A stretch of 64,000 bases of DNA from an uncultured Brevinematales bacterium (GTDB lineage: Bacteria; Spirochaetota; Brevinematia; Brevinematales; CAZQBT01). A program made the position numbers and the translations under genes. The stretch spans positions 371 through 64,370 of the forward strand of contig CAZQBT010000001.1 in NCBI GenBank assembly GCA_964591955.1, read 5' to 3'. Each line of letters begins with the position of its first letter. Position 1 is the first letter of the stretch. Below the pieces are notes generated by a model. The model did no database searches. It saw nothing but the letters and a program-made list of their open reading frames with translations, and had not been told where the DNA came from. Below, one piece after another: positions 251 through 56,495 of the stretch.

Positions 251-3109
251 ATGAAGAAGAATTTATTAAGATTTTTATTAGGAGCTTTTATGGGTATGGG
301 GCTTCTTTTTTCCTGCACATCTCTTAACGAGCTTTTGGATACACAATTCGGAGAAAAAGATACGGCAGTTCCGTTTGTTATGATTACTTCCCCGACAAAC
401 GGAGCAATTGTAAATACGGAAACCATTACTTTAAGCGGAACATCGGATATACAATCCCCGAATACCGTTTCAAAAGTAGAAGTTCAATTAAACGGCGGGG
501 AATGGGCAAACGCAACAGGTACTGCGGAATGGTCTGTTGAAATTAGCCTAAACGAAGGAACTAACGTTATATTAGCAAGAGCTACGGCTGATAACGCGAA
601 AACCGCAGTATCGGATGAATGGAATGTTATTTATGACCCAAGTATGCCTTCCATAACTATTGTATCTCATGAAAACGGGGATTTTGTAAATACCGTAAAT
701 ATCAGTTTTAGCGGAACGGCATTTGTTCAATCTCCTCATTCCATTACGCTTGTTGAAGTTCAATTAAACGGCGGGGAATGGGCGGAGGCTACAGGCACGG
801 ATAACTGGTCTATTAATCTTAATCTTAACGAAGGCGCTAATACGGTATTAGCAAGGGTAGAAGCCGACAACGGAAAAACCTCATCTTCCGCATTAATAAT
901 CATAAATCTTGACACTATCGCGCCAATGATAACTATCAGCAGTCCGACAAACGGGCAGGAAGTCGGATCAAGTTACCAATTTATGGGAACCGTCTCCGAC
1001 AATTTCGCCGGTGTTGACAAGGTTTTCTATAACACAGACGGCGGAGAATGGTTTGAAGCCGATATTGACGGAACTAACTGGAGTGTAATAATAAATGTTG
1101 ATGATTACGGCCAACATACAAACCGTGCTTTTGCAATAGATATGGTCGGCAATTCATCATCCACAAACTTTGTATGGATTGAACGCACAAGCGTTCCTTC
1201 AATAAACATAACCTCTCATTTCAACGGCGAACCCGTCCTTGAAAGCGAAATAACTTTGGAAGGAACGGCAAGCGTAGATACCCCATATATTATTACCTCC
1301 GTTGAGGTGAAACTTAATGAGGAAGGCTGGGAAAGCGCTACAGGCACGGATAACTGGTCGGCTAACCTCAGTCTTAACGAGGGTAAAAATACAATAATAG
1401 CGCGCGCACATTCGGACAGCGGAAAAAGCGCATCGGTTGAATGGACTATATACTACGACCCCGCTATTTTTGTATGCACCACCGGAAATGACGAAAATTC
1501 AGGGACAAGACTCGCTCCCGTAAAGAGTATTCAAACCGCTCTATCAAAAGCGCAGACTTTGGGTTTAAACAATATATACGTTGCTTCAGGACGTTATATA
1601 AGAGGAACCGGGTTAAACGCCTCAAGTTTAATCCATAATTACAGCGGGGTACGTATAGGTATTTCGGATATTACACTGCTCGGCGGTTGGAACAGCAGTT
1701 TCAGCGAAAGAACGGGAAAAAGCGAATTAGACGCGGAATCGGGTTTATACCATGTAATTTGGATTGACAACGTTGACAACGTTACCATAGACGGGTTTAT
1801 AATCCGCAACGGCAACGCAAACGATTCAACAACTGCACATCAACGCGGTGGCGGAATTTATATTGATCAGGGAAACGGGCATACAATACAAAATACTGAA
1901 ATTTCAGAAAACCGTGCGCTTACTCTCGGCGGAGGAGTGTATATCAATCAGGGTGAAAACCATACTGTTGATACAACAATAAACCTCAACTTGGCAAACA
2001 ATAATCACGGCGGAGGAATTTACTTACATCAAGGAACAAGCCACACTATTAAAGGCAATATTACCGATAACACCGCCAATCAATACGGCGGAGGAGTATA
2101 TATAAGCGCGGGAACAAGTCATACCGTAGAAGCAGATATTTCCGGTAACACAGCTAATACATACGGCGGAGGAGTATATATAACGGGAGGTAACACTCAC
2201 ATTATTGATGCAAATATTTCCGGTAATACCGGAAATACACGCGGAGGCGGTGTATATATAAATCAAGGAACTTCCTTTACAATATCGGGAACTATTGCCG
2301 ATAACGAATCTGCCTTAGGCGGAGGAGTATATATTTGGTATGGAACTACACATACTCTAAACGGTTCCATTATAGGAAATAATAGTACTACAGACGGAGG
2401 AGGTGTCTGTGTGTGGTATGGAACTACCCACACAATAAATGCCACTATCAAAGAAAATTCCGCTATCAGAAACGGCGGAGGGATTTACATGGAACGAAGT
2501 TCGGGACACTCCATAGGCGGAACTATTAGCGGTAATACGGCAAATACCAATGGTGGAGGAATTTACGTTAATATCGGGACAAGCTACACATTAAGCGGAA
2601 CCATCAGCAGTAACTCTGCACGAAACGGTGGAGGAATGTTTGTAAATCAGGGAACAGGACATAATGTAACTGCAACTTTAAATGAAAACTCTGCTACTCA
2701 GTCGGGAGGAGGTGTTTACTTAAATAATAGCACAAATAACTCATTAGGTGGAAATATTAAGAAAAATACTGCAAATAACGGTGGTGGTGTTTATTTATCA
2801 CGAGGAAGTTTGCATACTTTAAACGCAACAATTTCTGAAAATACTGCGCTAATTGGAGGAGGGGTATATATTGATATTGGCAAAGACCACACGATACGTG
2901 GCAATATAAGCGGTAACACAGCATCCAGCACCGGCGGAGGATTATATTTATTAGATATAAATCCCAATACTACGCTTATTTTCAATGCACCAACCATACA
3001 AGCCAATTCAAATTATGGAATTTCAAGATATGGAAGTACTTCTTTTCCTCAAGGGTTAGATACAATCAACTGGGGAACGGGGAATAGTCCTGCTAATAAG
3101 AACTGGTAA
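251..3109 (+). CDS. Large surface/secreted lipoprotein: Ig-like modules, right-handed beta-helix and about 17 polymorphic-membrane-protein-like (GGG[VI]Y) repeats
   Basis: ATG is preceded by GGAGG. The signal peptide has lipobox LLFSC. Four copies of an approximately 70-aa module are present (ITLSGT...VEVQLNGGEW..ATGT..WS..L.L.EG.N.ILARA). The segment FVCTTGNDENSGTRLAPVKSIQTAL..IYVASGRY is typical of beta-helix proteins. It is followed by a 25-26 aa periodic repeat N-T-A-x-x-GGGVYI-x-x-G-T-S-H-T-I-x-G-x-I-S-G. A paralog lies at 23295-25760. Confidence 0.85.
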   Translation: MKKNLLRFLLGAFMGMGLLFSCTSLNELLDTQFGEKDTAVPFVMITSPTNGAIVNTETITLSGTSDIQSPNTVSKVEVQLNGGEWANATGTAEWSVEISLNEGTNVILARATADNAKTAVSDEWNVIYDPSMPSITIVSHENGDFVNTVNISFSGTAFVQSPHSITLVEVQLNGGEWAEATGTDNWSINLNLNEGANTVLARVEADNGKTSSSALIIINLDTIAPMITISSPTNGQEVGSSYQFMGTVSDNFAGVDKVFYNTDGGEWFEADIDGTNWSVIINVDDYGQHTNRAFAIDMVGNSSSTNFVWIERTSVPSINITSHFNGEPVLESEITLEGTASVDTPYIITSVEVKLNEEGWESATGTDNWSANLSLNEGKNTIIARAHSDSGKSASVEWTIYYDPAIFVCTTGNDENSGTRLAPVKSIQTALSKAQTLGLNNIYVASGRYIRGTGLNASSLIHNYSGVRIGISDITLLGGWNSSFSERTGKSELDAESGLYHVIWIDNVDNVTIDGFIIRNGNANDSTTAHQRGGGIYIDQGNGHTIQNTEISENRALTLGGGVYINQGENHTVDTTINLNLANNNHGGGIYLHQGTSHTIKGNITDNTANQYGGGVYISAGTSHTVEADISGNTANTYGGGVYITGGNTHIIDANISGNTGNTRGGGVYINQGTSFTISGTIADNESALGGGVYIWYGTTHTLNGSIIGNNSTTDGGGVCVWYGTTHTINATIKENSAIRNGGGIYMERSSGHSIGGTISGNTANTNGGGIYVNIGTSYTLSGTISSNSARNGGGMFVNQGTGHNVTATLNENSATQSGGGVYLNNSTNNSLGGNIKKNTANNGGGVYLSRGSLHTLNATISENTALIGGGVYIDIGKDHTIRGNISGNTASSTGGGLYLLDINPNTTLIFNAPTIQANSNYGISRYGSTSFPQGLDTINWGTGNSPANKNW

Positions 3110-13526: not shown

Positions 13527-15002
13527 TTACATCATTGCATCAAGAGTTCGCTGGAGTTGCCGTGCCGCTCCGCTGATAAAGGAGCTGAACACTCCGCCCT
13601 CACTTTCCGATGTTCCGCTTAAACGAACCGACCGTGAGGATATTAACTCGCCGGTTTCGGTATCCACAAGCTGTGCCGCAACGCTATACATCGCGCGATA
13701 CCTGCTGATTGTGGTTTCGTAAGACGGTTTAGCGTTGGCATCAACAACCAGCACAAAGACTCTCTTTATACCCTGATTGGAAAGCTGACGTAACGCCGCT
13801 GCGTTCATATTAACCACGCCGTCAACGGATACGTTAGACGGAAACCTCACTACGGTAAAGCCTCTGCCCAACAGATAGCTTTGCATCTCGGATGTTAATT
13901 GAGGGATATTGGAAAACCTTCCGCCCTCTTCCTTGATAGCAATAACGGAACTGGTAATCTTACGATGAGCTTCCGAAACAACGCGAACCGTAGTTGTTCC
14001 GGCAACTCTTTCCATTGTATTTCTCAAAGTAGAGTAATATCTTTCCATATCGCCTTCAATATTGCGAATCTCCTCAAGGGTAACGCCGAGACGGGCATAA
14101 ATAACCGTATTGTTGTTGACCTGAGCAAGACGGTTTATAACGAATTTTGCCTCACCGTTGTTGTCGGTGGAAGCGGAACGGGAATAATCGCCTGTGTTGT
14201 TCCTGATAGAAAAGTCGAGTCTTGCGCCTCTGACGGGAATACGGGTTTCGCCCGCGTAGGTCAGTTTAAACCCGACCTCCGACTTTGCCTGAGTATCTAC
14301 CGTGTCGGGAACATCGGATGGCTCAATCATAAGGTTAGCAAGAATCCTGTTGGCATTGTTAATATAAATCATAAAGTCTTCCTGCCTGTCCTCAACCTTG
14401 GTTGAAGCAACCGCGGCGCTTAGATACGAATTAAACGCATCAATAACCCTGCCGTCTCTTAACTGTTGTTCAGCCTCGCGGACATTTCTGTCAACCATCT
14501 CAAGTTTACGCTTTAATTCATCCATAACGCGTTTGCGTTCCTGTTCGACCGTTGACCTTGGGATTTTCGCAAGAACCCACGCACGGGTAATATCAAGGCC
14601 TCCCTCGTTGTAAGTATGAAAATGATTTTTTTCGGTTTCTATACCCGAAAGATTAGCCTGACTTCGGGTTTGCATAGCGCGCTGATAATCCTCCTGAAGA
14701 GCGCCCTCTCCTGCAAGATTCCCATAGGTGTTGAATAACTCATCTACCGTAACGCGTTCAAAGATAAACGAGGATATTCTCGCGGTAGCATCGGCAACGG
14801 CGGAACGCCGAACCTCGGTCGGGTCCGATATATCCTCTGCAAAACCTACAAAATAATAGTATTCCGAGGATTGCGGGGGGTTATCCACCCAGTCGGGAAG
14901 CGATGCTCTACTTGGAGGTCTTGTAGCGCTATCCCCCCCTTTACAAGCAAAAAACGCCCCTATTAAAACCATACTCATAACCGCACAAAAAAACTTTTTC
15001 AT
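13527..15002 (-). CDS. Lipoprotein of unknown function
   Basis: Signal peptide with lipobox FFAC and GGAGGG before the ATG. It has a central coiled-coil-like segment. Its stop is 4 nt before the dnaE start. Confidence 0.7.
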   Translation of the reverse strand: MKKFFCAVMSMVLIGAFFACKGGDSATRPPSRASLPDWVDNPPQSSEYYYFVGFAEDISDPTEVRRSAVADATARISSFIFERVTVDELFNTYGNLAGEGALQEDYQRAMQTRSQANLSGIETEKNHFHTYNEGGLDITRAWVLAKIPRSTVEQERKRVMDELKRKLEMVDRNVREAEQQLRDGRVIDAFNSYLSAAVASTKVEDRQEDFMIYINNANRILANLMIEPSDVPDTVDTQAKSEVGFKLTYAGETRIPVRGARLDFSIRNNTGDYSRSASTDNNGEAKFVINRLAQVNNNTVIYARLGVTLEEIRNIEGDMERYYSTLRNTMERVAGTTTVRVVSEAHRKITSSVIAIKEEGGRFSNIPQLTSEMQSYLLGRGFTVVRFPSNVSVDGVVNMNAAALRQLSNQGIKRVFVLVVDANAKPSYETTISRYRAMYSVAAQLVDTETGELISSRSVRLSGTSESEGGVFSSFISGAARQLQRTLDAMM

Positions 15003-22517: not shown

Positions 22518-22970
22518 ATGGCTATACAAAGAACGCTTGCGATAATTAAACCGGATGCATATCAAGCCGGTAACGTTGGAAATATTATCTCAATGATAGA
22601 GGAAAACGGATTTAAAATAATCCATCTGATTCTTTTCAAATTCACACCGAAATCCGCAGGACAATTCTATAAAGTCCACGAGGGCAAGCCGTTTTTCGAC
22701 GGACTTATCGAGTTCATTACCTCCGACAAAGTTATCGCAATGGTTTTGGAAAAAAACAACGCCGTCAAGGAATTAAGAAACCTTATGGGCGCAACCAATC
22801 CCAAAGACGCAGCGCCCGACACTATCCGCGGGAAATACGCTAAAAGTATGCCCGATAACGCCATCCACGGCTCGGACTCCCCCTCAAACGCCCGTAAAGA
22901 GATTACCTATATCTTCGGCGAGTTCGCATCAATACCATCAACGGAAAAAAGTCTCGCTAAAGAGTATTAG
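22518..22970 (+). CDS. ndk: Nucleoside diphosphate kinase
   Basis: 150 aa with TLAIIKPDA and NAIHGSDS motifs. Confidence 0.95.
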   Translation: MAIQRTLAIIKPDAYQAGNVGNIISMIEENGFKIIHLILFKFTPKSAGQFYKVHEGKPFFDGLIEFITSDKVIAMVLEKNNAVKELRNLMGATNPKDAAPDTIRGKYAKSMPDNAIHGSDSPSNARKEITYIFGEFASIPSTEKSLAKEY

Positions 22971-22980
22971 GGGAAAAACC

Positions 22981-23202
22981 TATCGGTCATTTCGCACCAC
23001 ACCAATTTACCATTATTGTAGCACAGGCTTCCAGCCTGTGCCGATACGGTCATCTCGATACACCAAGCCCTTGTGGGCAAGGGCTCGGCACTCGATGACC
23101 GAATTATTACCTATGAAGTCCTTCCTCAAACCAACCGGTTATGGAGTTTTTTGCGAAGCGAAAAGCCTGCCCTGAGCGCAGTCGAAGGGTATCGAGATGA
23201 CC
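22981..23202. repeat. Cluster of REP/MITE-like GC-rich hairpins and inverted repeats
   Basis: Hairpins CACAGGC-ttcca-GCCTGTG and GCCCTTG-tgg-GCAAGGGC are present. A 14-bp perfect inverted repeat pairs GGTCATCTCGATAC (23048-23061) with GTATCGAGATGACC (23189-23202). Two further degenerate GGTCAT-TCG copies occur. The region is noncoding and lies between convergent genes. Confidence 0.5.
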
Positions 23203-23239
23203 AAACCCGTAACCGCTCCCGTTTTCTTGTATAATAAAA

Positions 23240-23265
23240 AAACCGCGCCTTAATAGACGCGGTTT
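23240..23265 (-). terminator. Rho-independent terminator after the second Pmp-like gene
   Basis: AACCGCG-ccttaataga-CGCGGTT hairpin flanked by an A-run (T-run on the minus strand), about 30 nt past the stop at 23295. Confidence 0.55.
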
Positions 23266-23294
23266 ATGTTTATACAAATGATTTAGCTTAAAGG

Positions 23295-25760
23295 TTACCA
23301 GTTCATATCTTCAGGCGTATTTCCGTTTCCCCAGTCGATTGTGCCGATACCCTCCGGGGTGCTGTTGGCATCCCATCTATACACTCCATACCCCGTATTA
23401 TCTTCTATGGTGGGGGAATCAAACGTATGCGTATCATTAGCGGAAGTGTCATAGAAATATACCCCGCCTCCGTTCAGGTCCGCCGTGTTGCCCGATATAG
23501 TCCCGCTTATTGTGTGGCTTGTGCCCTGATGGACATATACACCGCCGCCCCAATCATTAGCCGTGTTGCCTGTTATAGTTGCGTTAATAGTGTGGTTTTC
23601 GCCTCTATCAACAAACATACCGCCACCGTAAGCATTAGCCGTATTGCCCGATATAGTCCCGCTTATTGTATGACTTGTTCCTCTATTCACATACACACCG
23701 CCACCCTCATCTGCCGTATTGCCCGTGATAGTCCCGCTTATTGTGTGGCTTGTGCCCTCATTGACATATACACCGCCGCCCCTACCATTAGCAGCCGTGT
23801 TGCCTGTTATAGTTGCGTTAATAGTGTGGTTTTCACCATATTCTACATACACACCGCCACCGTGAGTACTAGCCGTATTGCCGCTAATAGTCCCGGTAAT
23901 AGTGTGGCTTGTGCCATCCCTCACAAACACACCGCCTCCTTCTTCACCGGTTACCGTATTATCAGTGATATTTGCACTAATAATGTGTCCTGTGCCTTCT
24001 TCCACATACACCCCGCCTCCATATCCATCCGCAGTGTTACCCGATATAGTCCCGCTTATAGTGTGGCTTGTGCCCTGAATGACATATACACCGCCCCCGT
24101 AACCGTCATTTACCGTGTTGCCTGATATAGTTGCGTTAATAATGTGGGTTTCACCATATTCTACAAATACACCGCCTCCGCCGTAATTCGCAGTGTTGTC
24201 CGATATGGTACCGCTAACAGTGTGATTTTCACCATGTTCTACAAATACACCGCCTCCGTCCCAACTCGCAGTGTTGCCCGATATGGTACCGCTTATAGTG
24301 TGGTTTGAGCCGTAATAAACATTCACACCGCCCCCATATTGAGCCGTGTTGTTGGATATGGTACCGCTAACAGTGTGGCCTGTGCCACTCGCGAGATACA
24401 CCCCGCCTCCGTAATTATCTGAGGTGTTACCCGATATGGTCCCGCTTATTGTGTGGCTTTCGCCTCTATCAACAAATACACCGCCCCCTTCCTCCGGTAC
24501 CGTGTTATCTGTGACGGTTGCGCTAATAATATGGTTTGCGCCCTGCGCGAGATACACCCCGCCTCCGTAATTATCTGAGGTGTTACCCGATATGGTACCG
24601 CTCATAGTGTGGCTTGTGCCTAGATGCATATACACCCCGCCTCCGTCATCATCCGCCGTGTTGTTGGATATTACCGTGTTTTGTATAGTATGCCCGCTAC
24701 CTTGATTAATATAAATCCCGGCACCGGAATTATGAACGCTTGTAACTCCATCAGCAAGCCCGCCGCGGATAACAAACCCGTCGATAGTTATATCCTCCAC
24801 GTCGTCAATCCATAGAACATGATATAACCCGGATTCCGCGTCTAATTCACTCTTCCCGTTGCGTTCGGTAAAACTGCTGTTCCATCCGCCGAGGATAGTC
24901 AACCCCGCGACATCTATAAACGCCCCGCTGTATTGATAATCCTCGTTTGCAGTATTCAGACCTTCTCCCGGGGTGTAAACACCTTCCGCCACGTAAATTG
25001 ATAATATACCAAAATCCTGCGCATTTGATATAGCGTTTTGAATACTCTTTAATGGAGCAAGACTTGTTGTTCCGGAATTGGCATCATCCCCCGTAGTGGA
25101 TACAAACATAGTGGGAACGTAATTTATAGTCCATTCAACCGATGCGCTTTTTTCGTTGTCCGAATGTGCGCGCACTATTATTGTATTATCCCCACCGGTA
25201 AGACTTAGGTCTGCCGACCAGCTATCCGTGCCTGTAGCGCTCTCCCAATCTTCCTCGTTAAGTTTTACCTCAACGGAGGTAATAACAAATGGGTCGGCTA
25301 CGCCTGCCGTTCCGCTGAGCGTTATATCAGCCTCATTCACATAAGCTCCGTTATCGTGTGATTGAATTTCGACTGAAGGCGCTGATGGGTCATAATAAAT
25401 AATCCACTCGCCTGATGATGCGGTTTTCCCGTTAGACCCCGTAGCTCTTGCTACAATAGTATTAGTCCCCTCATCAAGAGTAAGTTCAACAGACCACTCG
25501 GTCTTTCCATCCGCCTGTTGCCATTCCGCGTCATTGAGTTTAACCTCAACTTTGGAGATACTTGCAGGCGAGGAGATACTTGCAGTCCCGCTTAAAGTGA
25601 TAACCGCAACGTTTACGGTAGCGCCGTTAGCGGGTGATACAATCGTAACCGAAGGTGTAGGCTTACTATCATCCATATCTTCATCCGCCGGACTACACCC
25701 AAAGAAAACCATCCCTAAACCACCCAACAAAACCATCATTAAAAAAACCAATTTCTTCAT
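23295..25760 (-). CDS. Paralogous Pmp-repeat beta-helix lipoprotein
   Basis: ATG at 25760 follows GGAGG; the track start at 25787 is TTG. Lipobox FFGC is present, with three Ig-like modules, a beta-helix entry region and many GGGV[YF]V repeats. The C-terminus GTIDWGNGNTPEDMNW parallels DTINWGTGNSPANKNW of the 251-3109 protein. Confidence 0.85.
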   Translation of the reverse strand: MKKLVFLMMVLLGGLGMVFFGCSPADEDMDDSKPTPSVTIVSPANGATVNVAVITLSGTASISSPASISKVEVKLNDAEWQQADGKTEWSVELTLDEGTNTIVARATGSNGKTASSGEWIIYYDPSAPSVEIQSHDNGAYVNEADITLSGTAGVADPFVITSVEVKLNEEDWESATGTDSWSADLSLTGGDNTIIVRAHSDNEKSASVEWTINYVPTMFVSTTGDDANSGTTSLAPLKSIQNAISNAQDFGILSIYVAEGVYTPGEGLNTANEDYQYSGAFIDVAGLTILGGWNSSFTERNGKSELDAESGLYHVLWIDDVEDITIDGFVIRGGLADGVTSVHNSGAGIYINQGSGHTIQNTVISNNTADDDGGGVYMHLGTSHTMSGTISGNTSDNYGGGVYLAQGANHIISATVTDNTVPEEGGGVFVDRGESHTISGTISGNTSDNYGGGVYLASGTGHTVSGTISNNTAQYGGGVNVYYGSNHTISGTISGNTASWDGGGVFVEHGENHTVSGTISDNTANYGGGGVFVEYGETHIINATISGNTVNDGYGGGVYVIQGTSHTISGTISGNTADGYGGGVYVEEGTGHIISANITDNTVTGEEGGGVFVRDGTSHTITGTISGNTASTHGGGVYVEYGENHTINATITGNTAANGRGGGVYVNEGTSHTISGTITGNTADEGGGVYVNRGTSHTISGTISGNTANAYGGGMFVDRGENHTINATITGNTANDWGGGVYVHQGTSHTISGTISGNTADLNGGGVYFYDTSANDTHTFDSPTIEDNTGYGVYRWDANSTPEGIGTIDWGNGNTPEDMNW

Positions 25761-25906
25761 AATCAACCTCCTAAAATTTATACCCAAAAAGGATTATGTT
25801 TCCCCGCAAACTTGGAATAAAAAAAATTCGCCACACCGTATAGGCACAACACATAATTATATATCCAATAAATAAATGTTTTTAAATTTCACCCTTTTAT
25901 ATGCGT

Positions 25907-25934
25907 ATTTTACCCCCCCCCCGTAATATGTCAA
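25907..25934 (-). promoter_or_regulatory. Sigma70-type promoter whose spacer contains a G10 homopolymer
   Basis: The minus strand reads TTGACA (25934-25929), then TATTAC plus G10 (a 16-nt spacer; the C-tract on the plus strand is 25913-25922), then TAAAAT (25912-25907). This lies about 140 nt upstream of the ATG at 25760. Confidence 0.6.
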
Positions 25935-26065
25935 ATTTTTTGCTCTAAAATCTTTATTTTTTTTCAAAGCTCACCGCACCGCGCGTTTCTATCTTAACAT
26001 TTGATTTATTCCGGCTTTGCCTTTAAAATATCTGCGGATTTATTATTATCACGGGAGCGGACGTT

Positions 26066-26917
26066 ATGTTTATTAAAATCATCAAGCATGGGTTTTCACG
26101 ATGGTGGGATAAGATGGGATACGCGGTGCTGACGTCCTTTTTGTCGGCGATTAACCCGTTTTTTCTCGCTACTATGGTTTTTATATTGCTCGGTTTGCTT
26201 ATAGAGGATAAATCGGTATTGATTGAAAATATACGGTTAATCCTGATGGTTTTACCGCCGGTGGTTTTGGCGACTGCGGTATTCCCCACAACTTTTGCGG
26301 GAATTGCCGTGCAGAAACAGGTCGCGGAAAACGAGACTATGTATTTCAAGCGGTATTTCCCCGATTATTTTAAACTTTTGTGGAAATTCCTCCCGAAATC
26401 TTTATTGCTCTCGCTTATATATATCGCAGTGGGATTTCTGTTGAGTTACAGCGCGATTTTCTATTTCAGCGTCATTGAAAATATAGTATTCCGCGGTATA
26501 GCGGTGCTTGTGGTTATATGGGTTTACCTGTTTTTGTTACTTTCGAGATTTATACTGATACCGCTTATAATCTACAACCCGGAAATGAAGCTATCCGATG
26601 CCATTAAAATTTCGTTTAAGATAGTGCTTGCCGAGGGATTGGCGATACTGGGAATTGTCATTATCGACTTTCTGGTATGGGTCGCGCTTACAATGACACG
26701 ATTCTTTTTCCTGTTTATATATTACGGTTTATCGGCTAATCTCAGGATTTTTACCCACAAGGAAATTATTGCCAAATACACAAAGAAAGATGAAACGGAT
26801 AATAAGGAAAAGGATTCGGATACCCGCGAGGCGTGGGCGGGAATAATGAAAAAGATGCGCGAAAACTCCGATTCATCCGGTAATATGGAGGACACCGGCA
26901 ATGAAACAAAAAAATAA
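26066..26917 (+). CDS. Polytopic membrane protein of unknown function
   Basis: 283 aa with about 5-6 hydrophobic helices and an acidic/lysine-rich C-terminal tail. GGGAG precedes the ATG. Confidence 0.6.
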   Translation: MFIKIIKHGFSRWWDKMGYAVLTSFLSAINPFFLATMVFILLGLLIEDKSVLIENIRLILMVLPPVVLATAVFPTTFAGIAVQKQVAENETMYFKRYFPDYFKLLWKFLPKSLLLSLIYIAVGFLLSYSAIFYFSVIENIVFRGIAVLVVIWVYLFLLLSRFILIPLIIYNPEMKLSDAIKISFKIVLAEGLAILGIVIIDFLVWVALTMTRFFFLFIYYGLSANLRIFTHKEIIAKYTKKDETDNKEKDSDTREAWAGIMKKMRENSDSSGNMEDTGNETKK

Positions 26918-28343
26918 CGGTAACGGCTTTCTTGAAAGACTGAACCGCTTTGCTGAAAAACTTGAAAGCGAAAAAAAGTTCGACAACCTTATTAAAGAAG
27001 CCGACAATATCAAGTCCTATATTGAAACCGACTTTAAGGAAAAGCCCCTTGAAGAAACCGAGAAAAACGAGTTTTTGGAAACTATATCCGCGCTCATAGA
27101 TAAGATTGAATCAATCAAAATCACCGATGAAGCCGCGCTTCCTAAAAAATCCGCTTTAATAGAACGATTAAGAGAATTAAAAACCCCGCTGACTAAAGCC
27201 CCTGAAAAGAAACCCGATAAAAGCACTGAGGTTATGGAAAGCGTAGAAGACGATAAAAAGAAAATCCAAAGAAAAAACTTTTTAGGACATCTGTTTAAAA
27301 AGGGGCGGGATGGGGATTTTTCATTTTTTAAGAACGGTGTCGGCGGCGTAATAAAAGAATACCGCGACTTCCATAAAGCAAAAGAGGAGACAATCAAGAA
27401 AGCAATCGCCTACGAGACTGTGGTAAGCGGCGCAACCGACACGATAGAATACTATGTCCTGTTAGTGTTGTCCTGCCTCATAGCGACATTCGGGCTTTAT
27501 TTAAACTCGCCTGCGATTATTATAGGCGCGATGATAGTAGCGCCGCTTATGGGGCCTGTATTCGGGTTTTCGGCGGGTATGTTGTGGGGAAGCGGAAAAG
27601 TTATACGGGAGGCGTTTTTCACTCTGATTAAAGGCTCGATTCTCGTCATCTTAATATCCGCTGCGCTGACTTATCTAATTCCCGGTATCTATATAACATC
27701 GGAAATAGCAGCACGTTCAAAGCCGACACTCTTTGATATAATTGTAGCGTTATGCTGTGGATTTGTCGGGGCGTATGCATTTGTCAATAAGCGGGTATCC
27801 TCCGCCGTGCCGGGTGTCGCGGTATCGGTCGCCCTTATGCCTCCGGTATGCACTATCGGAATAGGTCTCGGCTTATTGGATTTTGAACTCGTAAAAGGCG
27901 CGAGTTTGCTTTACGGGGTAAACGTCCTGTGCATATCGCTTGCCGCGCTTATAGTATTCTATCTTATAAAATTGCACCCCGAATCGGATGATAAACGGGA
28001 GTTTCTACGCGCACAGAGACGGGCTATCGGGCATATTCTCGTATCTATACTTCTGCTGATTTTAATAGCCGCGCCACTAACCTACTTTATGATTACATCA
28101 TCAAGAGATAAACGGGAGCAGAGTATAATTACCGATATTATATCAAAAAATCTTCCCGATACAAAAATTTTCTCAATTGATATAAAAAAAGATACGGGAT
28201 ACGAAATCGAGACTATCGCATTATCCGCTTTTTCTATAACAAATTATGCGGCAATAGAGAACGAAATAAGCGAAACACTGGGACAAAAGGTAAGACTTAA
28301 TATATACGAAATAACACGAATAAAAAATCAGGCGGAGAACTAA
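26901..28343 (+). CDS. DUF389-type membrane protein with a long charged N-terminal extension
   Basis: The segment YYVLLVLSCLIATFGLYLNSPAIIIGAMIVAPLMGPVFG matches the DUF389/TIGR00341 hydrophobic core. The N-terminal 170 aa are Lys/Glu-rich. The gene overlaps the upstream gene by 17 nt. Confidence 0.7.
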   Translation: MKQKNNGNGFLERLNRFAEKLESEKKFDNLIKEADNIKSYIETDFKEKPLEETEKNEFLETISALIDKIESIKITDEAALPKKSALIERLRELKTPLTKAPEKKPDKSTEVMESVEDDKKKIQRKNFLGHLFKKGRDGDFSFFKNGVGGVIKEYRDFHKAKEETIKKAIAYETVVSGATDTIEYYVLLVLSCLIATFGLYLNSPAIIIGAMIVAPLMGPVFGFSAGMLWGSGKVIREAFFTLIKGSILVILISAALTYLIPGIYITSEIAARSKPTLFDIIVALCCGFVGAYAFVNKRVSSAVPGVAVSVALMPPVCTIGIGLGLLDFELVKGASLLYGVNVLCISLAALIVFYLIKLHPESDDKREFLRAQRRAIGHILVSILLLILIAAPLTYFMITSSRDKREQSIITDIISKNLPDTKIFSIDIKKDTGYEIETIALSAFSITNYAAIENEISETLGQKVRLNIYEITRIKNQAEN

Positions 28344-28642
28344 AACTCGATAAAGTCGATAATAGGAAGGACAAAAATTTTGCCGTCTCCCCACTCTCCC
28401 GTGCGAAGACTTAGCCGTATCTTTTCGATTGTCTCCTCCGATTCGGTTAAAATATCCAAAGCGATACGCGGCAGATGGGATAACAGGGGTTTTGCCCGTT
28501 TCTCAACATTGCGGATTCTTTCGGGATGGAATCCCGAACCGATTACCTCTTCATAATAAACCGATTTTAATAAATTCTGTGGAATGTCGCGTAATTTAAA
28601 AGGTTTGCATATTATACGTGCGAACTTATAAAAATCCGGCAC
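28340..28642 (-). CDS. P-II (GlnB)-family protein with a divergent T-loop
   Basis: GTG start lies 8 nt after GGGAG and 2 nt after the upstream stop. ARIICKPFKLRDI aligns to the P-II N-terminus, and RTGEWGDGKIFVLPI matches the P-II TGxxGDGKIFV signature. The T-loop has similar length but lacks the GAEY tyrosine. Confidence 0.65.
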   Translation of the reverse strand: MPDFYKFARIICKPFKLRDIPQNLLKSVYYEEVIGSGFHPERIRNVEKRAKPLLSHLPRIALDILTESEETIEKIRLSLRTGEWGDGKIFVLPIIDFIEF

Positions 28643-42494: not shown

Positions 42495-43916
42495 CTAAAT
42501 TATAGCCCGTAAAAGGGCTTTGGCTTTATTAATAGTCTCCTGATACTCTTTTTCAGGAACAGAGTCATAAACAATCCCCGCGCCGGCTTGTATATAAGCC
42601 GTATCGCCCTTATGGACAATAGTCCTGATAGCGATACAGGTATCGGTGTTGCCTGAAAAGTCGATATATCCGACAGCGCCGGCGTAAACGCCCCGCTTTT
42701 CGGGTTCAAGCTCCTCGATAATTTCCATAGCGCGAACCTTCGGCGACCCCGTTACCGTCCCTGCGGGAAAAGTCGCGCCGATAATATCTACCGCATCAAA
42801 TTTACCGTCGGGCTTGCCCAAAACATCGGATACTATATGCATAACATGGGAATATCGCTCAATATGGTAAGGGGCTTCAACCCTGATACTGCCGAACTCG
42901 CTAATCCTTCCGACATCATTACGCGCAAGGTCAAGCAGCATAGTATGCTCGGCAAGCTCCTTTTTGTCGGAAAGAAGGTCCTGTTCAATAGCCAAATCTT
43001 CCTCCCAGTTTTTCCCTCTCGGACGGGTTCCGGCTATCGGACGGACTATTACCTCGTCCTTATAACAATCGCGGGTGCGTTTTACCATAACCTCCGGTGA
43101 TGAACCCACTAAGGCAAATTCGGTAAAGTCGATATAAAACATATAGGGCGAGGGGTTAATCATACGAAGTTTTCGGTATATATCAAAAGGGGAGAGCGGG
43201 GTTTGAACCCTGAGACGCTGCGATAAAACCACCTGAAAAATATCCCCCGACACGATATATTCCTTAGCCTTTTCCACCGCATAGATAAAGTTTTCTTTTT
43301 TGAAATTTGAAATCAGGTTGATTTTACTGTTTTGCGACTCGACAATACGGGAAGGCGGTTTTGCGTTTAAAAGACGTGTCTCGTATTCATCAATAAGTTT
43401 ACGCGCTTCCGATTTGTCGGTTTCACTGTAAGCATAGCTTATCAAAACAAGTTTCTGCTTGATATGGTCGAAAGCGATAAGAATTTTAGGCAATACCAAA
43501 TAAATATCGGGAAGCTCAAGGCGGTCGGGTTTGGTATCGGGGATTTTCTCAAAATATCTGACCGAATCGTATGAGAAATATCCGAGAAGCCCTGCGCTGA
43601 AAGGAGGCAATCCTTCCACCTCGCTTTCCTTAAAACGCGACACCAAGCGTTTAACCTCATTAATCGGGTTATCGCAAGTCTTCTCTTCCTTGTCGCCTCT
43701 AAAATCAATAGATACGCGTTTCCCTTTAGCCTTAAACTCAAGCTCGGGGTCAAAACCGAGGAAGGAATATCGCCCCATTCGTTCCCCCATCTCGACACTT
43801 TCCAATAGAAACCCGATTTTGCCCTGTTCTTTGAGAGCAAGAAAAGCCGAAACCGGGGTTTCGATATCCGCCGCAATTTCCTTAAAAACCGGATATAATC
43901 GCACTTCCTTTTCCAT
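42495..43916 (-). CDS. trpE: Anthranilate synthase component I
   Basis: 473 aa with LLESVEMGERMGRYSF and chorismate-binding domain motifs (GAGIVYDS). Confidence 0.95.
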   Translation of the reverse strand: MEKEVRLYPVFKEIAADIETPVSAFLALKEQGKIGFLLESVEMGERMGRYSFLGFDPELEFKAKGKRVSIDFRGDKEEKTCDNPINEVKRLVSRFKESEVEGLPPFSAGLLGYFSYDSVRYFEKIPDTKPDRLELPDIYLVLPKILIAFDHIKQKLVLISYAYSETDKSEARKLIDEYETRLLNAKPPSRIVESQNSKINLISNFKKENFIYAVEKAKEYIVSGDIFQVVLSQRLRVQTPLSPFDIYRKLRMINPSPYMFYIDFTEFALVGSSPEVMVKRTRDCYKDEVIVRPIAGTRPRGKNWEEDLAIEQDLLSDKKELAEHTMLLDLARNDVGRISEFGSIRVEAPYHIERYSHVMHIVSDVLGKPDGKFDAVDIIGATFPAGTVTGSPKVRAMEIIEELEPEKRGVYAGAVGYIDFSGNTDTCIAIRTIVHKGDTAYIQAGAGIVYDSVPEKEYQETINKAKALLRAII

Positions 43917-43940
43917 AGTAAATCCCCTTGTTTTAATTTA

Positions 43941-43980
43941 TAAAACAAAAAAACCCCGCAGGGACTTTGTCCTGCGGGGG
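43941..43980 (-). terminator. Attenuator terminator of the trp leader
   Basis: The minus strand reads CCCCGCAGGAC-AAAG-TCCCTGCGGGG followed by TTTTTTTGTTTT, ending 24 nt before the trpE ATG. Confidence 0.8.
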
Positions 43981-44024
43981 TCTATTTCAAAAAATACATT
44001 TCACAAATAGACAGGCTTTCATCC

Positions 44025-44084
44025 CTAATCAACAAGAAGTAAGCGCCACCACCAAGAAAACAAGGATACAAAAGACCGTCTCAT
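44025..44084 (-). CDS. trpL: trp operon leader peptide (19 aa, three consecutive Trp codons)
   Basis: GGGAGA lies 7 nt before the ATG. The ORF ATG AGA CGG TCT TTT GTA TCC TTG TTT TCT TGG TGG TGG CGC TTA CTT CTT GTT GAT TAG encodes MRRSFVSLFSWWWRLLLVD*. It sits between a promoter and a terminator upstream of trpE and is too short for the ORF track. Confidence 0.75.
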   Translation of the reverse strand: MRRSFVSLFSWWWRLLLVD

Positions 44085-44111
44085 AAAAATTTCTCCCGTA
44101 TATTTGAACAT

Positions 44112-44140
44112 ATTTTATCAACCGTTTTTTATTTTGTCAA
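44112..44140 (-). promoter_or_regulatory. Sigma70-type promoter of the trp operon
   Basis: The minus strand reads TTGACA (44140-44135), a 17-nt spacer, then TAAAAT (44117-44112). Confidence 0.65.
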
Positions 44141-46937: not shown

Positions 46938-47330
46938 CTAACTAACCTTCAAATCAGCCTTTGATTCCCAAAGCCCGTGAATATTGCAGTAAGATGTTGC
47001 AATCAAAGTGCCTGATTTTTCGGTTTTTAAACTTACGGTAGCTTCAGGCTCGCTATAAACCGAGCTTGTATCGGCGCCTTCCGTTGAAGCACCATGTGAT
47101 GCAAAATCATATTTGCCGATAAAATAAGGGTTTTTCTCGCCCTCGGGAAGAAAATACAGCTCTATCCAGACTATATGATGAGCGGTTGTATTGGGGTGAG
47201 GTATTTCCTTACCTACGCTGACCGTTACCTTAACTTTCTCACCTTTCTTAGAGGAAGCAGGTGCATCAATCACCGGAACGTGTTTTTCCGTCTTCCAATC
47301 GGCGCTCTTAAAAACTTCACCTATTGACAT
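46938..47330 (-). CDS. sor: Superoxide reductase (neelaredoxin-type, 1Fe-SOR)
   Basis: Contains EKHVP, HPNTTAHHIVWIE and CNIHGLW motifs (His4Cys iron site). The ATG at 47330 follows GGAGG. Confidence 0.9.
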   Translation of the reverse strand: MSIGEVFKSADWKTEKHVPVIDAPASSKKGEKVKVTVSVGKEIPHPNTTAHHIVWIELYFLPEGEKNPYFIGKYDFASHGASTEGADTSSVYSEPEATVSLKTEKSGTLIATSYCNIHGLWESKADLKVS

Positions 47331-47344
47331 AAAAACCTCCAAAT

Positions 47345-47851
47345 CTAAAATTTAACAAACTTCTCTTTAGCCACTCCGCAAACGGGGCATTTACCGGGTG
47401 TATCTTCCCCGAAATGGGTAAACCCGCAAACGGGACAGATATAAACGGGCTTGTTGTCAACATCCTTGCCCTGCTTTAAATTATCCAAAGCCTCCTCGTA
47501 GTAAGCGCGATGGATTTTTTCGGCTTCTATGGCATAATGGATAGATTTTTCCGCGCCCTTTTCGCCCTGAAGTTTGGCAATAACATCATAAGCCGGATAC
47601 ATCTCATCAATCTCAAAGCCCTCGCCGTCAATGCCCGCCTGTATATTTTCCTCAGTTGAACCTATATACCCGAGATTGCGGGCATGGTTGGTAGCATGAA
47701 CTCTCTCCGCATAGGCAATAGCCTCAAAGAGTTTTGCCAAATTAGCATAACCATCGGCTTTGGCTTTGTCGCTGAACGCAAGATATTTCATATGAGCCAT
47801 TGACTCGCCGGCAAAAGCATCACTCAACGCCCTTTTTGTCATCTCTTTCAT
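47345..47851 (-). CDS. rbr: Rubrerythrin
   Basis: The N-terminal diiron four-helix bundle shows an E..E..H pattern. The C-terminal rubredoxin-like segment is CPVCG...CPVCG. Confidence 0.9.
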   Translation of the reverse strand: MKEMTKRALSDAFAGESMAHMKYLAFSDKAKADGYANLAKLFEAIAYAERVHATNHARNLGYIGSTEENIQAGIDGEGFEIDEMYPAYDVIAKLQGEKGAEKSIHYAIEAEKIHRAYYEEALDNLKQGKDVDNKPVYICPVCGFTHFGEDTPGKCPVCGVAKEKFVKF

Positions 47852-52436: not shown

Positions 52437-55400
52437 CTATTTCCTGATAATAAACTCAACCCTGCGGTTACGGGCATTATATTCGGAGGTGGTTTCACCT
52501 CCGGCTCTCGGTAATTGCTGCTCAAACCCCACACCTTTAAAGCTCAAACGGTTAAAATCAAACCTCACCCGTTTACGCTTTAATATTTCCGAAAGATAAT
52601 CATAAACAGACTTGGCGCGTCTCTCCGAGAGAGGCTTGTTATAGCTTGCGCTACCCACCGAATCCGTATGTCCCACTATTATAATTTGATAATTATCGGA
52701 TAGTTTATATCTTGCGGGGTCTTTAACCACCGTTTCGATAATCTCCGCAACCTTTGCGACAACCGCACGCCCATCATCGGTAAGATTATGCTTGTTAAAC
52801 TCAAAGTTTATACTGCTTACGCGGATAATCCAATCATACTGCCTTTCGATAAGAAGCACCCCGACTACTATATCTCTTTCTACACGAAGAGTATTGCCGA
52901 GACCGTCTTTTGCCGTTAATATCATTGCATAATCCTGCACGGAATCGACCAAAAGCCCGTTATCGCCGATACCGTCCCATTCAATAGTCTTTTCGACTTT
53001 CTGCACAAAATTATCGCCACCTTTAAAAGTCTTAAACGGGCGGGCTTCATCAAAGTTTTCGCCTTTCTTGTAAATATTAATCTCCCAGACTACTTTGTTG
53101 GGGTCATAAAGCTCAAGATTTATAAATAACGTATCGTTTACACTGTCGCCGTCGGGAGTAAACAAATCGGGAACTACGGTAATTTTGTAATCGGGAGGAG
53201 TTTTGTCAAGCACAATATTTGTAATGGTCGCCGTAATAAGGTTTCCCGTATCAAAATCATAACTCATCCTCGCGGAATAAATTCCGTCTGCTGCCGGCTT
53301 GCCGTCATCAGTTTTACCGTCCCATACGATTTTATCATCCCTGCCCTTTTCGATAGTTCTTACCGTCCTGCCCTGAATATCAATAATTTCAAGTTTAGCC
53401 TTTCTTAATCTCGAAATAGGAGTCGTATTCAATGCCCGTGTGGTAAATGCGAGGGTATCCAAGTTTCCGTCATTATTCGGAGCAAACCGATGTTCGCCGT
53501 CAATCTTAAATTCAATATCCTCAAAACGACGGACAAGACGGATACCCGGAATATTTATTTGCATAGTATTTCTTGCAGCATCTCTGCCGAAAAAGTCAAA
53601 ACGATAAACTCCCTCAGGCACAGGTTTTCCTTCTTTATCCGTGCCGTTCCAGCGCAACTCATCGGGCAACTCATCGCCGCGCCATTGATAAGTCCTTACA
53701 ACCCGGTCTCCGTCTTCCGTTTCGCGGGCAAACGAGGCGGTAAATATCTCATCGTTTTTTCGCTCTCCGACAATCCGTATCGGCAAATAATCCTGCCGTC
53801 CGTCATCATTAGGCGAAAAAGCCATATATGCAAATTCAAATCCGACATTCGGAGGAACACGGTCGATACGCACGGTGCGGGTATCGGAACGGGGGTTTCC
53901 GCCGTAATCGTATTCAACGGAAACGTCATAAAAATATATCCCGTCGGGCAAATTTTTACCCGCATCGTCTTTTCCCTCCCATACGAATTGAGGAACAAAA
54001 GCGTTGGTAACAAATCTGCGCACGGGTTTGTCATCGGCATTCCTTATTTCCAGAATAAGTTTCTCTATGCGCTCGGTAAATGTAAGGGAAATATCAAACT
54101 TAATCTTTTGGTTGGCATTTTCCGTTCCGGGCGAAATTGCAAGAACATCGCTTGAAACCGTAGCCTCATCACGCCCCGTTCGGATAAAGAATTCGACTTC
54201 CCTGCTGTTGCGGTTTCCTACCCAGTCAACCGCCTCAACAACATAAAGATATTCGCCCTGCGGGAAATTTCTATAAGGCGGTGAGGTTCTCTTGTCGAAC
54301 CCGTCCCAAGTAAAACTTTGGGGAAATTCCGAAAGAGGGGAGCGGTCAAAATATATCATCTCGCCGGTTTTCTTGTATAGTATTTTCGATGTAATCATAT
54401 CATCGGCACGCCCCGAAAGTCTATGCACAAAGGTTATATCATCCTGCACGCCGTCCCTGTTCGGCGAAAACGCAAGATATTCGGCATCAATCTCAATTTG
54501 AGTCGGGGTGGTATCTATTGTGATGGTTTTAAGCTGTGTTTTGGGATAATTACCGCTGTCATAGAAAAGTTGAATATCGTAAAGATAATCGCCGTCGGAC
54601 AGGCGTTTGCCTTCGGCATCATTCCCGTTCCACACTATCTGCGCGGGAAGTTTATCCGTGCCTTTAAACTCCCTAACAACGTTGGTGGAATTATCGTAAA
54701 TCCTGAAGACCCAGTTTTCAAGCCCCCTGTCGTCATCAACCGACGGGGAAAAAGTAACGGTATCCGTGGCGCCGCCGGGAGAAAACCCGTTACGATTTAC
54801 CGATAGCGTTACGTTTTGATAATTGGTAACAAGACGGATACTCCTTATGCGGTCGGATGTTTGGTTGCCCGCCAAATCCCGCGCCGTAATACGAAAATCA
54901 TAAATCCCCTCGCCCACGGGAATTTGCCTGTCGTCCAATCCATCCCACACAATTTGTTCGGGGGATGTATCCTCATAGCGGAAAGTGCGCCTTGTCTTGC
55001 CGTCTGTGTCTAAAATCTCAGCGGTTATCTTAGTGCCTCTTGTTATGTTTTCCGATGAGACAGAGAAAACGTTTTCGTCCTTAACGCCGTCATTATTAGG
55101 CGAAAAAATCAAATATTGAGCCTCCGCTTCAATCACGGGAATCACCGTATCAACCACAATAATACCGGATTTGGTTTCCGAAAGATTATCATTATCATCC
55201 CACGCGCGAAGGACATAGAAATAATCCCCGTCTTCAACGACTTTCCCGTCTTTATCAAACCCGTTCCAAGTAATATATTCGGGAATAAAAACCTCAGTTC
55301 GTTTGGAAAAAATCCGCCGGACAAAAAGAGGAATAGTAAGATTGCGGATTCTTAACGCCTCGGTGCTATGAAAGGTTTTGACAATCTCCCCGTCTTTATC

Positions 55401-56495
55401 GGTGATAATCAATTCCCATTCTTTAACCATAGTGTTGTCCCGTATATCAAGGTAAAAATTGACCTCATCCTGCGAACCGGTAAAATTAGGCGAAAAATGG
55501 GAGTAATTCGGGCTGACACTAACCTCAGGTGGAATCCTGTCGTAATACCCCACCGCGACCGATAAATTTACGGAATGGGCAATCGAATTTTTGCCGTTAA
55601 AATCAAGATTCTGTATTGAATAGGAAATTTCCACATCGGTAGAGGAGTCGGGTTTATCAGGCACGGGGACAAAAGCGAATTTCAACCCGCCTCCCGCATA
55701 CCAAAAAGGCATACCCGCCGTGTTGTATGATACCCCGCCTCGAATCGAAATTAGATTAAACACCGTGTTTTCCATCCCTATTCCGCCGACAAAGCCGACT
55801 GGATTAAACGGGACATTTATATCCGCCAAGAGACGCATCTCATAGACAGGTGTTTTGATAATACTTGAAGAAGCGCCTATCCCCAAACCGAGAGCCGGTA
55901 AAGAATTATATTCGCCGAGCGTTGCGGTTTTACCGATATTTTTCAAAACCGCGCCGTAAGAAAAGTCGAATAGCCCGAAACCGTAAGCATCGGGGGTGGG
56001 ATTGTTTACAATAAACCCCATATCGAAACCTAAAACCCAGTCGGAAACGTTATCGACAAGCCCTTTTACGTGGCTGAATTTCAAAGCGAAACCCCAGAAA
56101 AGGTTATCGGTAATATCTTTCGCCATAGAAATATCGGCGCCGATAAGCTGACCGAGGCTATCGGAGCTTTCGGGTCCCGCCAAATACCTTGCATTAAGCG
56201 AAAAAACGCCCGCCAACGTGGGTAACGCACCGCCCAAGTCCATAAGGAAAAAATCGCTTCCAAGCCCTAAGACGGAAAGACCGATAGTGCCGCGACGAAT
56301 ATCGGCAAGTTTTGCAGGGTTTAACCCCACCCCGCCCATACTTCCGAGTTCTGCTATCCCCGTATTGGCAAGCGAAAATTCCACAACCCCGCTGCCGATA
56401 TATCCGAACTGCGAACCGGGTAAAGGCTCATTTGCAAAAATCCCACCATAAACCGCAACCATTAAAATTATCAAAAATATCCTGAAAAACCTCAT
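52437..56495 (-). CDS. Giant envelope protein: N-terminal beta-barrel-like domain, 8 tandem FlgD-Ig-like domains and a C-terminal OmpA peptidoglycan-binding domain
   Basis: A signal peptide is followed by about 320 aa of Gly/aromatic-rich sequence. Eight repeats each carry [FI]SPN.DG..D ... W[DN]G.D..G..[LV].[DE]G.Y. The C-terminus has GHTDSVGSASYNKPLSERRAKSV...NRRVEFII. Confidence 0.85.
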   Translation of the reverse strand: MRFFRIFLIILMVAVYGGIFANEPLPGSQFGYIGSGVVEFSLANTGIAELGSMGGVGLNPAKLADIRRGTIGLSVLGLGSDFFLMDLGGALPTLAGVFSLNARYLAGPESSDSLGQLIGADISMAKDITDNLFWGFALKFSHVKGLVDNVSDWVLGFDMGFIVNNPTPDAYGFGLFDFSYGAVLKNIGKTATLGEYNSLPALGLGIGASSSIIKTPVYEMRLLADINVPFNPVGFVGGIGMENTVFNLISIRGGVSYNTAGMPFWYAGGGLKFAFVPVPDKPDSSTDVEISYSIQNLDFNGKNSIAHSVNLSVAVGYYDRIPPEVSVSPNYSHFSPNFTGSQDEVNFYLDIRDNTMVKEWELIITDKDGEIVKTFHSTEALRIRNLTIPLFVRRIFSKRTEVFIPEYITWNGFDKDGKVVEDGDYFYVLRAWDDNDNLSETKSGIIVVDTVIPVIEAEAQYLIFSPNNDGVKDENVFSVSSENITRGTKITAEILDTDGKTRRTFRYEDTSPEQIVWDGLDDRQIPVGEGIYDFRITARDLAGNQTSDRIRSIRLVTNYQNVTLSVNRNGFSPGGATDTVTFSPSVDDDRGLENWVFRIYDNSTNVVREFKGTDKLPAQIVWNGNDAEGKRLSDGDYLYDIQLFYDSGNYPKTQLKTITIDTTPTQIEIDAEYLAFSPNRDGVQDDITFVHRLSGRADDMITSKILYKKTGEMIYFDRSPLSEFPQSFTWDGFDKRTSPPYRNFPQGEYLYVVEAVDWVGNRNSREVEFFIRTGRDEATVSSDVLAISPGTENANQKIKFDISLTFTERIEKLILEIRNADDKPVRRFVTNAFVPQFVWEGKDDAGKNLPDGIYFYDVSVEYDYGGNPRSDTRTVRIDRVPPNVGFEFAYMAFSPNDDGRQDYLPIRIVGERKNDEIFTASFARETEDGDRVVRTYQWRGDELPDELRWNGTDKEGKPVPEGVYRFDFFGRDAARNTMQINIPGIRLVRRFEDIEFKIDGEHRFAPNNDGNLDTLAFTTRALNTTPISRLRKAKLEIIDIQGRTVRTIEKGRDDKIVWDGKTDDGKPAADGIYSARMSYDFDTGNLITATITNIVLDKTPPDYKITVVPDLFTPDGDSVNDTLFINLELYDPNKVVWEINIYKKGENFDEARPFKTFKGGDNFVQKVEKTIEWDGIGDNGLLVDSVQDYAMILTAKDGLGNTLRVERDIVVGVLLIERQYDWIIRVSSINFEFNKHNLTDDGRAVVAKVAEIIETVVKDPARYKLSDNYQIIIVGHTDSVGSASYNKPLSERRAKSVYDYLSEILKRKRVRFDFNRLSFKGVGFEQQLPRAGGETTSEYNARNRRVEFIIRK

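Follow-up and report, generated by a model that had tools for sequence, protein, structure and literature searches.

The locus under study lies in a window, by which we mean the whole 64-kb stretch of DNA that was analysed, with a G+C content of 42.7%. Its sequence assigns the source to the class Brevinematia in the phylum Spirochaetota, as an uncultured member with an FlhA that was about 65% identical to those of Brevinematia/Brevinematales MAGs, 60% identical to that of Brevinema andersonii and 76% identical to its nearest match. On the minus strand at 23295..25760, a gene with its ATG at 25760 encodes a protein of 821 amino acids, which was characterized by translation and by the use of Pfam, NCBIfam and AlphaFold. 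The protein starts with a signal peptide, MKKLVFLMMVLLGGLGMVFFGC, which was judged by eye to end in the lipobox FFGC with the cysteine at position 22 (Cys22), the combination that defines a bacterial lipoprotein. Pfam assigned Beta_helix, NosD, Chlam_PMP and Big_7 to it and NCBIfam assigned para_beta_helix, and in the AlphaFold model (pLDDT 87.7) an N-terminal signal helix and a disordered tether are followed by two Ig-like domains and then by a long parallel beta-helix, which is built of about fifteen 26-aa repeats and terminates in a beta-helix cap. The original prediction had described the protein as Pmp-like, which was supported for the repeats, matching PF02415 with an E of 7.8e-17, and failed for the autotransporter, as Pfam indicated no such domain in the 821-aa protein and no C-terminal beta-barrel was found. 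A fold search matched the Ig-like part only, the matches being adhesin and Fn3 modules (SiiE and CbhA, for example), and gave no clue to the function of the beta-helix. We infer from these sequence features that the lipoprotein is exposed at the cell surface. As for a signal of horizontal transfer, no composition anomaly was found except for the Gly-rich repeats, and TRF located 15 copies of a 78-nt tandem repeat at 23482..24663 within the gene on the same strand. A further large candidate surface protein of 1352 amino acids is encoded at 52437-56495 on the minus strand; it has a C-terminal OmpA-like domain and FlgD-like Ig repeats and partially matches the Leptospira adhesin Lsa66, under the family cutoff.

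Upstream of the lipoprotein gene is a 305-bp divergent intergenic region at 25761-26065, on the other side of which two plus-strand genes occupy 26066..28343, encoding a hypothetical protein of 283 amino acids (26066-26917) and a DUF389/TIGR00271-family membrane protein (26901-28343). Within this region, the minus strand from 25934 to 25907 reads TTGACA, TATTAC, GGGGGGGGGG and TAAAAT, which matches a sigma-70-type promoter at 11 of 12 positions. The −35 hexamer TTGACA (25929..25934), identified by sequence and promoter scan, matches at 6/6, and the −10 hexamer TAAAAT (25907..25912), which is identical to that of the trp promoter described below, matches at 5/6. The 16-nt spacer between them (25913..25928) consists of TATTAC (25928-25923) followed by a homopolymer of ten G residues (25913..25922; C10 on the plus strand), which adjoins the −10 hexamer and is predicted to be slippage-prone, its length exceeding the approximately 8 residues from which slippage is to be considered. 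The stretch 5′ of the −35 hexamer on the same strand (25935..25965; GAAAAAAAATAAAGATTTTAGAGCAAAAAAT) is A-rich in sequence and possibly resembles an UP element. In a consensus scan, this promoter was the top promoter-like site in 23-27 kb, and it is oriented towards the lipoprotein gene, with 146 nt to its ATG. The hexamers, the 16-nt spacer with G10 and the orientation are thus all as had been predicted, with the minus-strand sequence and the scan in agreement, and it is plausible from the sequence that the beta-helix lipoprotein gene has its sigma-70-type promoter in this hexamer pair.

The 5′ leader predicted from this promoter is about 140 nt long (25761..25902, minus strand), extending from an inferred start at about 25900-25902 to the ATG, and has a Shine-Dalgarno sequence, AGGAGG, at 25772-25767. 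No riboswitch or known RNA was found in the leader by Rfam, and the fold of the whole leader was no better than those of shuffled sequences (z +1.17). An intrinsic terminator between the promoter and the gene was considered and rejected, because of the weakness of the terminator-like hairpin found at 25851-25829 (−4.3 kcal/mol; z −0.07). Another hairpin at 25757-25798 on the minus strand, in which CAUAAUCCUUUU pairs with AGGAGGUUGAUUAUG, covers the Shine-Dalgarno sequence and the start codon of the lipoprotein mRNA, with a folding energy of −9.3 kcal/mol that was not significant against shuffled sequences (z −1.34). The consensus scan also indicated two other promoter-like sites in the intergenic region. 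One is TTAAAA-18-TATAAT, a 10/12 match at 25856..25885 on the minus strand, which is nearer the lipoprotein gene and could be an alternative or tandem promoter, and the other is TTGATT-17-TAAAAT at 26001..26029 on the plus strand, for the pair of the 283-aa and DUF389 protein genes.

To place the hexamers in the context of local promoter usage, we took a census of sigma-70-type matches of at least 10/12 with spacers of 16-18 nt in the non-coding DNA of the window (6.3 kb) and in its coding DNA. Such matches were about 5-fold denser in non-coding than in coding DNA, and 13 of the 15 non-coding matches were correctly oriented at most 250 nt upstream of a gene. The spacers of these 13 oriented matches were of 16 nt in 2, 17 nt in 9 and 18 nt in 2, compared with 16, 6 and 4, respectively, in the coding background. 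At the level of 11/12, there were five intergenic sites, all of them pointing correctly at a downstream gene, with a 17-nt spacer in four and a 16-nt spacer at the G10 site only, and three matches within coding DNA. Given this local norm of 17 nt (9/13, and 4/5 at 11/12), G10 appears to be one base below the optimum, which G11 would restore, as had been proposed from the sequence. Separately, the arrangement TTGACA-16-TAAAAT (11/12) was also observed at 47324-47351 on the plus strand, where a convergent intergenic region ends; it points into a minus-strand gene at the 3′ end of the latter and would be either an antisense promoter or a match by chance.

The trp promoter at 44140-44112 on the minus strand has the identical hexamers at 17-nt spacing (TTGACA-17-TAAAAT), in agreement with the original prediction. 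It is the first element of a region at 43917-44140 on that strand in which a Shine-Dalgarno sequence, GGGAG, a leader ORF and a hairpin with a T-run follow in order before trpE. The leader ORF (ATG at 44084) encodes MRRSFVSLFSWWWRLLLVD with three Trp codons in a row (WWW), a strong GC-rich hairpin with its T-run lies at about 43980-43945, and the ATG of trpE is at 43916. The fold of the trp leader had a z of −2.69, and no Rfam family matched it. By its sequence layout, this leader is a classical ribosome-mediated attenuator, here in a Brevinematia spirochaete. The presence of such a layout behind the same hexamers provides independent support for the view that promoters with this hexamer pair work in this genome.

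The tract itself is exceptional in its surroundings. It had been noted as the only G/C homopolymer of at least 10 found in the window, and it proved to be the sole G/C run of even at least 8, the second longest being a C7 at 14933-14939. The base composition gives an expectation of about 0.004 G runs and 0.022 C runs (about 0.026 in total) of at least 10 per window. No G/C run of at least 7 was found in 17.6 kb of further flank of the same genome, resulting in one such tract per about 82 kb of genome covered (window and extra flank), and none of at least 9 was found in about 100 kb of DNA of relatives. Other simple-sequence repeats with phase-variation potential were searched for in the window, and none were found. 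For the framing of the run, we considered a run lying wholly within a 15-19-nt spacer between hexamers totalling at least 11/12; the probability of such hexamers around G10 was 1.6e-5 for one fixed arrangement and about 1e-3 by chance over 40 arrangements and 2 strands. The framing of G10 by a near-consensus promoter is, therefore, a real, non-random arrangement.

A paralog of the lipoprotein gene at 251-3109 is without such a tract, as had been noted earlier, and the tract is also absent from the 9 kb upstream of it. The paralog encodes 952 amino acids with four Ig-like domains, a beta-helix and the lipobox LLFSC, and starts 20 nt after a 176-aa ORF, in an apparent operon with no promoter of its own. 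It exists in two public versions, which are one residue apart (A815S). Its upstream region was rejected as a comparison promoter, being coding DNA with no homology to the G10 promoter.

G/C runs of this length slip in replication, and slippage climbs steeply with run length, and the activity of sigma-70 promoters depends on the length of the spacer. It is plausible that the G10 run gains or loses G residues through slipped-strand mispairing at replication and that each step shifts the −35/−10 spacing of the lipoprotein promoter. Transcription would be maximal at G11 (17 nt), intermediate at G12 and at G10, which is the majority length at present, and little at G9 or shorter and at G13 or longer. 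The outcome would be a heritable and reversible control over the expression of a probably surface-anchored repeat protein. The weaker promoter-like site downstream could supply basal expression, in which case the tract would act as a dial and not as an on/off switch, and since 16-nt spacers are generally still functional, the effect of one step on the output may be modest. We consider the chances about even that the promoter spacer works as such a slippage-set dial, which of the readings considered has the best support. The promoter match and the enrichment of such matches in non-coding DNA, the preference for 17 nt, the rarity of the tract, the low chance of its framing, the weakness of the leader hairpin, the precedent of tp0126 in Treponema pallidum and an allele of the lipoprotein gene that differs in repeat number, both described below, speak for the dial, and the uniformity of G10 among public contigs, the presence of a second promoter-like site nearer the gene and the occurrence of a single tract in about 82 kb speak against it; organisms that depend on contingency loci usually carry many such tracts.

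To see the tract in other assemblies, we used the 283-aa neighbour, which occurs in exact form on 20 public contigs, and fetched ten of them, from JGI, ENA and Logan. G10 and an identical 305-bp intergenic region were present in all ten, each from a different assembly. Over 3-9 kb, nine of the ten contigs had 100% identity with the window, and the tenth, L005, differed only by a 234-nt deletion in the lipoprotein gene. This degree of identity indicates that the sampled population is essentially one clone. Moreover, assemblies give the majority tract length only, minority lengths being invisible in them, and the same read sets were possibly assembled by more than one pipeline. The majority length is constant between these samples and the tract-length variation proposed in the original prediction was not confirmed, with G10 in 10/10 contigs, but uniform consensus lengths within one clone are weak evidence against variation. 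In T. pallidum clones, more than 90% of reads are at one length for nearly all poly-G/C tracts (PMC10013896).

An alternative, in our view fairly unlikely, is that the promoter is real and the tract effectively fixed, with slippage variants that are rare and have no adaptive role. G10 would then be a mere spacer, possibly a rigid G/C block by the −10 hexamer that damps a near-consensus promoter. Beyond the uniform length in ten assemblies, the single tract in about 82 kb and the compatibility of a 16-nt spacer with activity agree with this idea, as do the observations that 4 of 17 tested T. pallidum tracts are little or not variable (PMC7864442) and that only 24 of 46 tracts of 8 or more differ among clones (PMC10013896). 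On the other hand, about 118 kb of further DNA from this genome and its relatives lacks G/C runs of at least 9, which suggests that such runs are normally purged, so that G10 would need a reason to persist. The steep dependence of slippage on run length also tells against a fixed tract, and an offset of one base from 17 nt resembles a dial in a non-optimal state.

It is also conceivable, although clearly unlikely, that the lipoprotein gene is transcribed not from these hexamers but from TTAAAA-18-TATAAT or from elsewhere, with G10 lying in upstream DNA that is not transcribed and having no or only an indirect effect. This is favored by the 10/12 match at 25885-25856, by the three 11/12 matches inside coding DNA and by the length of the leader of about 140 nt, which exceeds the distance of 17-54 nt that mostly separates the −10 hexamer from the start codon in the window. 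However, the trp promoter with its identical hexamers has a leader of 195 nt, each of the five intergenic 11/12 sites precedes a gene in the correct orientation, and the framing of the tract by such hexamers would occur by chance at only about 1e-3.

Comparison with relatives bears on another alternative, which we regard as very improbable, that the tract serves, as C10 on the plus strand, the divergent 283-aa/DUF389 pair, for example, by phasing an upstream site to the promoter of the pair. The shared 305-bp region and the position of the tract 79 nt upstream of the plus-strand −35 candidate would permit it, but the tract is outside that promoter and no binding-site motif was identified. Only three homologs of the 283-aa protein were found, at 43-58% identity, and in the two homolog contigs fetched (58% and 47%), a GH3 gene is upstream in place of the lipoprotein gene. 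The fetched loci of relatives keep the gene pair without any G/C run of at least 7, upstream regions included, which also argues against a role of the tract for the pair. Overall, no ortholog of the G10 promoter was found in relatives by comparisons based on the 283-aa protein, FlhA and the lipoprotein. The search with the lipoprotein N-terminus gave distant matches only, and two contigs with such distant homologs had no G/C run of at least 7. A scan of a genome collection gave no match for the 283-aa and DUF389 proteins, and metagenome DNA-pattern scans, with a variable gap across the tract or with the plain flank, gave no match in a collection that is apparently without the source samples.

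We also compared four contigs from the nearest relatives, anchored on FlhA (71-76% identity). One of them stops at flhG, and the three that reach beyond it keep the flagellar/cNMP synteny, sharing the order fliP-flhA-flhF-flhG-amidohydrolase-cNMP x2 before diverging, and are without the DUF389/283-aa/lipoprotein block. The block (22970-28640) is at a synteny break relative to these three (L015, L016 and L019), where the relatives have genes for LysE and others (L015 and L016) or for LRR proteins (L019). From its sequence context, 22970-28640 looks like a variable locus.

An artefactual origin of the tract in sequencing or assembly, such as the poly-G of two-colour chemistry that occurs in Illumina data, is scarcely credible, because the run is embedded between unique sequences on its two sides and is identical in ten assemblies from three pipelines (JGI, MEGAHIT-style ENA contigs and Logan).

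Variation of another kind was seen in the coding sequence. L005 (ERZ27252292; 1464-3695) carries a 743-aa allele that is otherwise identical to the gene in the window and from which a 234-nt segment of three repeats (23601..23834, minus strand, with the position ambiguous by 42 nt) is absent by a clean in-frame deletion. The identity between repeat copies at the deletion junction is limited to 42 bases, which is shorter than the 141-mer indicated by k141 in the contig name, so that the deletion is probably a genuine repeat-number allele and not an assembly collapse. This allele fits a gene under diversifying pressure and has no bearing on the tract. A two-tier contingency locus, in which the G10 dial would set the level of expression and recombination between the 78-nt repeats the length of the protein, is a tentative extension that we consider possible but rather doubtful. 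If true, it would bring phase variation as found in pathogens to a little-known class of spirochaetes, where the driver could be pressure from phages or grazers and not host immunity.

If the tract varies, it would be the first candidate for a promoter-spacer phase switch in the class Brevinematia; our literature search for Brevinema and phase variation found nothing relevant. Variation would also show that the use of poly-G seen in T. pallidum goes back further, or is spread more widely among spirochaetes, than one would gather from host-adapted pathogens, and the beta-helix lipoprotein would stand out as a surface molecule on which selection fluctuates. A fixed tract would be simply an unusual spacer of little consequence.

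Several known systems can be compared with the locus. The PF02415 PMP-type repeats are shared, as a parallel beta-helix, with chlamydial Pmp proteins, whereas no autotransporter barrel was detected here and an N-terminal lipobox and two Ig-like domains are present instead. For some chlamydial pmp genes, the phase variation that has been reported acts through poly-G within the coding sequence and not in the promoter spacer. Nearer in phylogeny are tprE/G/J and tprL of the spirochaete T. pallidum, candidate surface protein genes whose promoters likewise contain poly-G. Their tracts are just upstream of the start and overlap the −10 region, tprE/G/J being permissive only at 8 or fewer G residues (PMC7864442), and because of this overlap the spacing is unchanged, in contrast to G10, which is wholly within the spacer of the predicted lipoprotein promoter. 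T. pallidum as a whole also differs in having 46 tracts of 8 or more (PMC10013896) against one in about 82 kb of this AT-leaning genome, and 76% of 17 further poly-G tracts of 8 or more that were tested in that species clearly vary (PMC7864442). According to the summary in PMC7864442, porA of Neisseria meningitidis has a poly-G homopolymer within the −35/−10 spacer, as predicted for the lipoprotein promoter, and its expression drops away from 17 nt; the organism and the gene are unrelated, and the variation of porA has been demonstrated experimentally. In tp0126 of T. pallidum, which encodes an OmpW homolog, poly-G falls in the interval that separates the −35 element from the −10 element and transcription is optimal at 17-nt spacing, so that the two loci have the phylum Spirochaetota in common and, as predicted for the lipoprotein promoter, a poly-G in the sigma-70-type spacer of an outer-membrane or surface protein gene (PMC7864442). 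The present case differs from tp0126 in coming from an uncultured member of the class Brevinematia and in having an unrelated beta-helix lipoprotein as its predicted target. By analogy, T. pallidum tp0126 and N. meningitidis porA appear to be the closest precedents for the G10 promoter.
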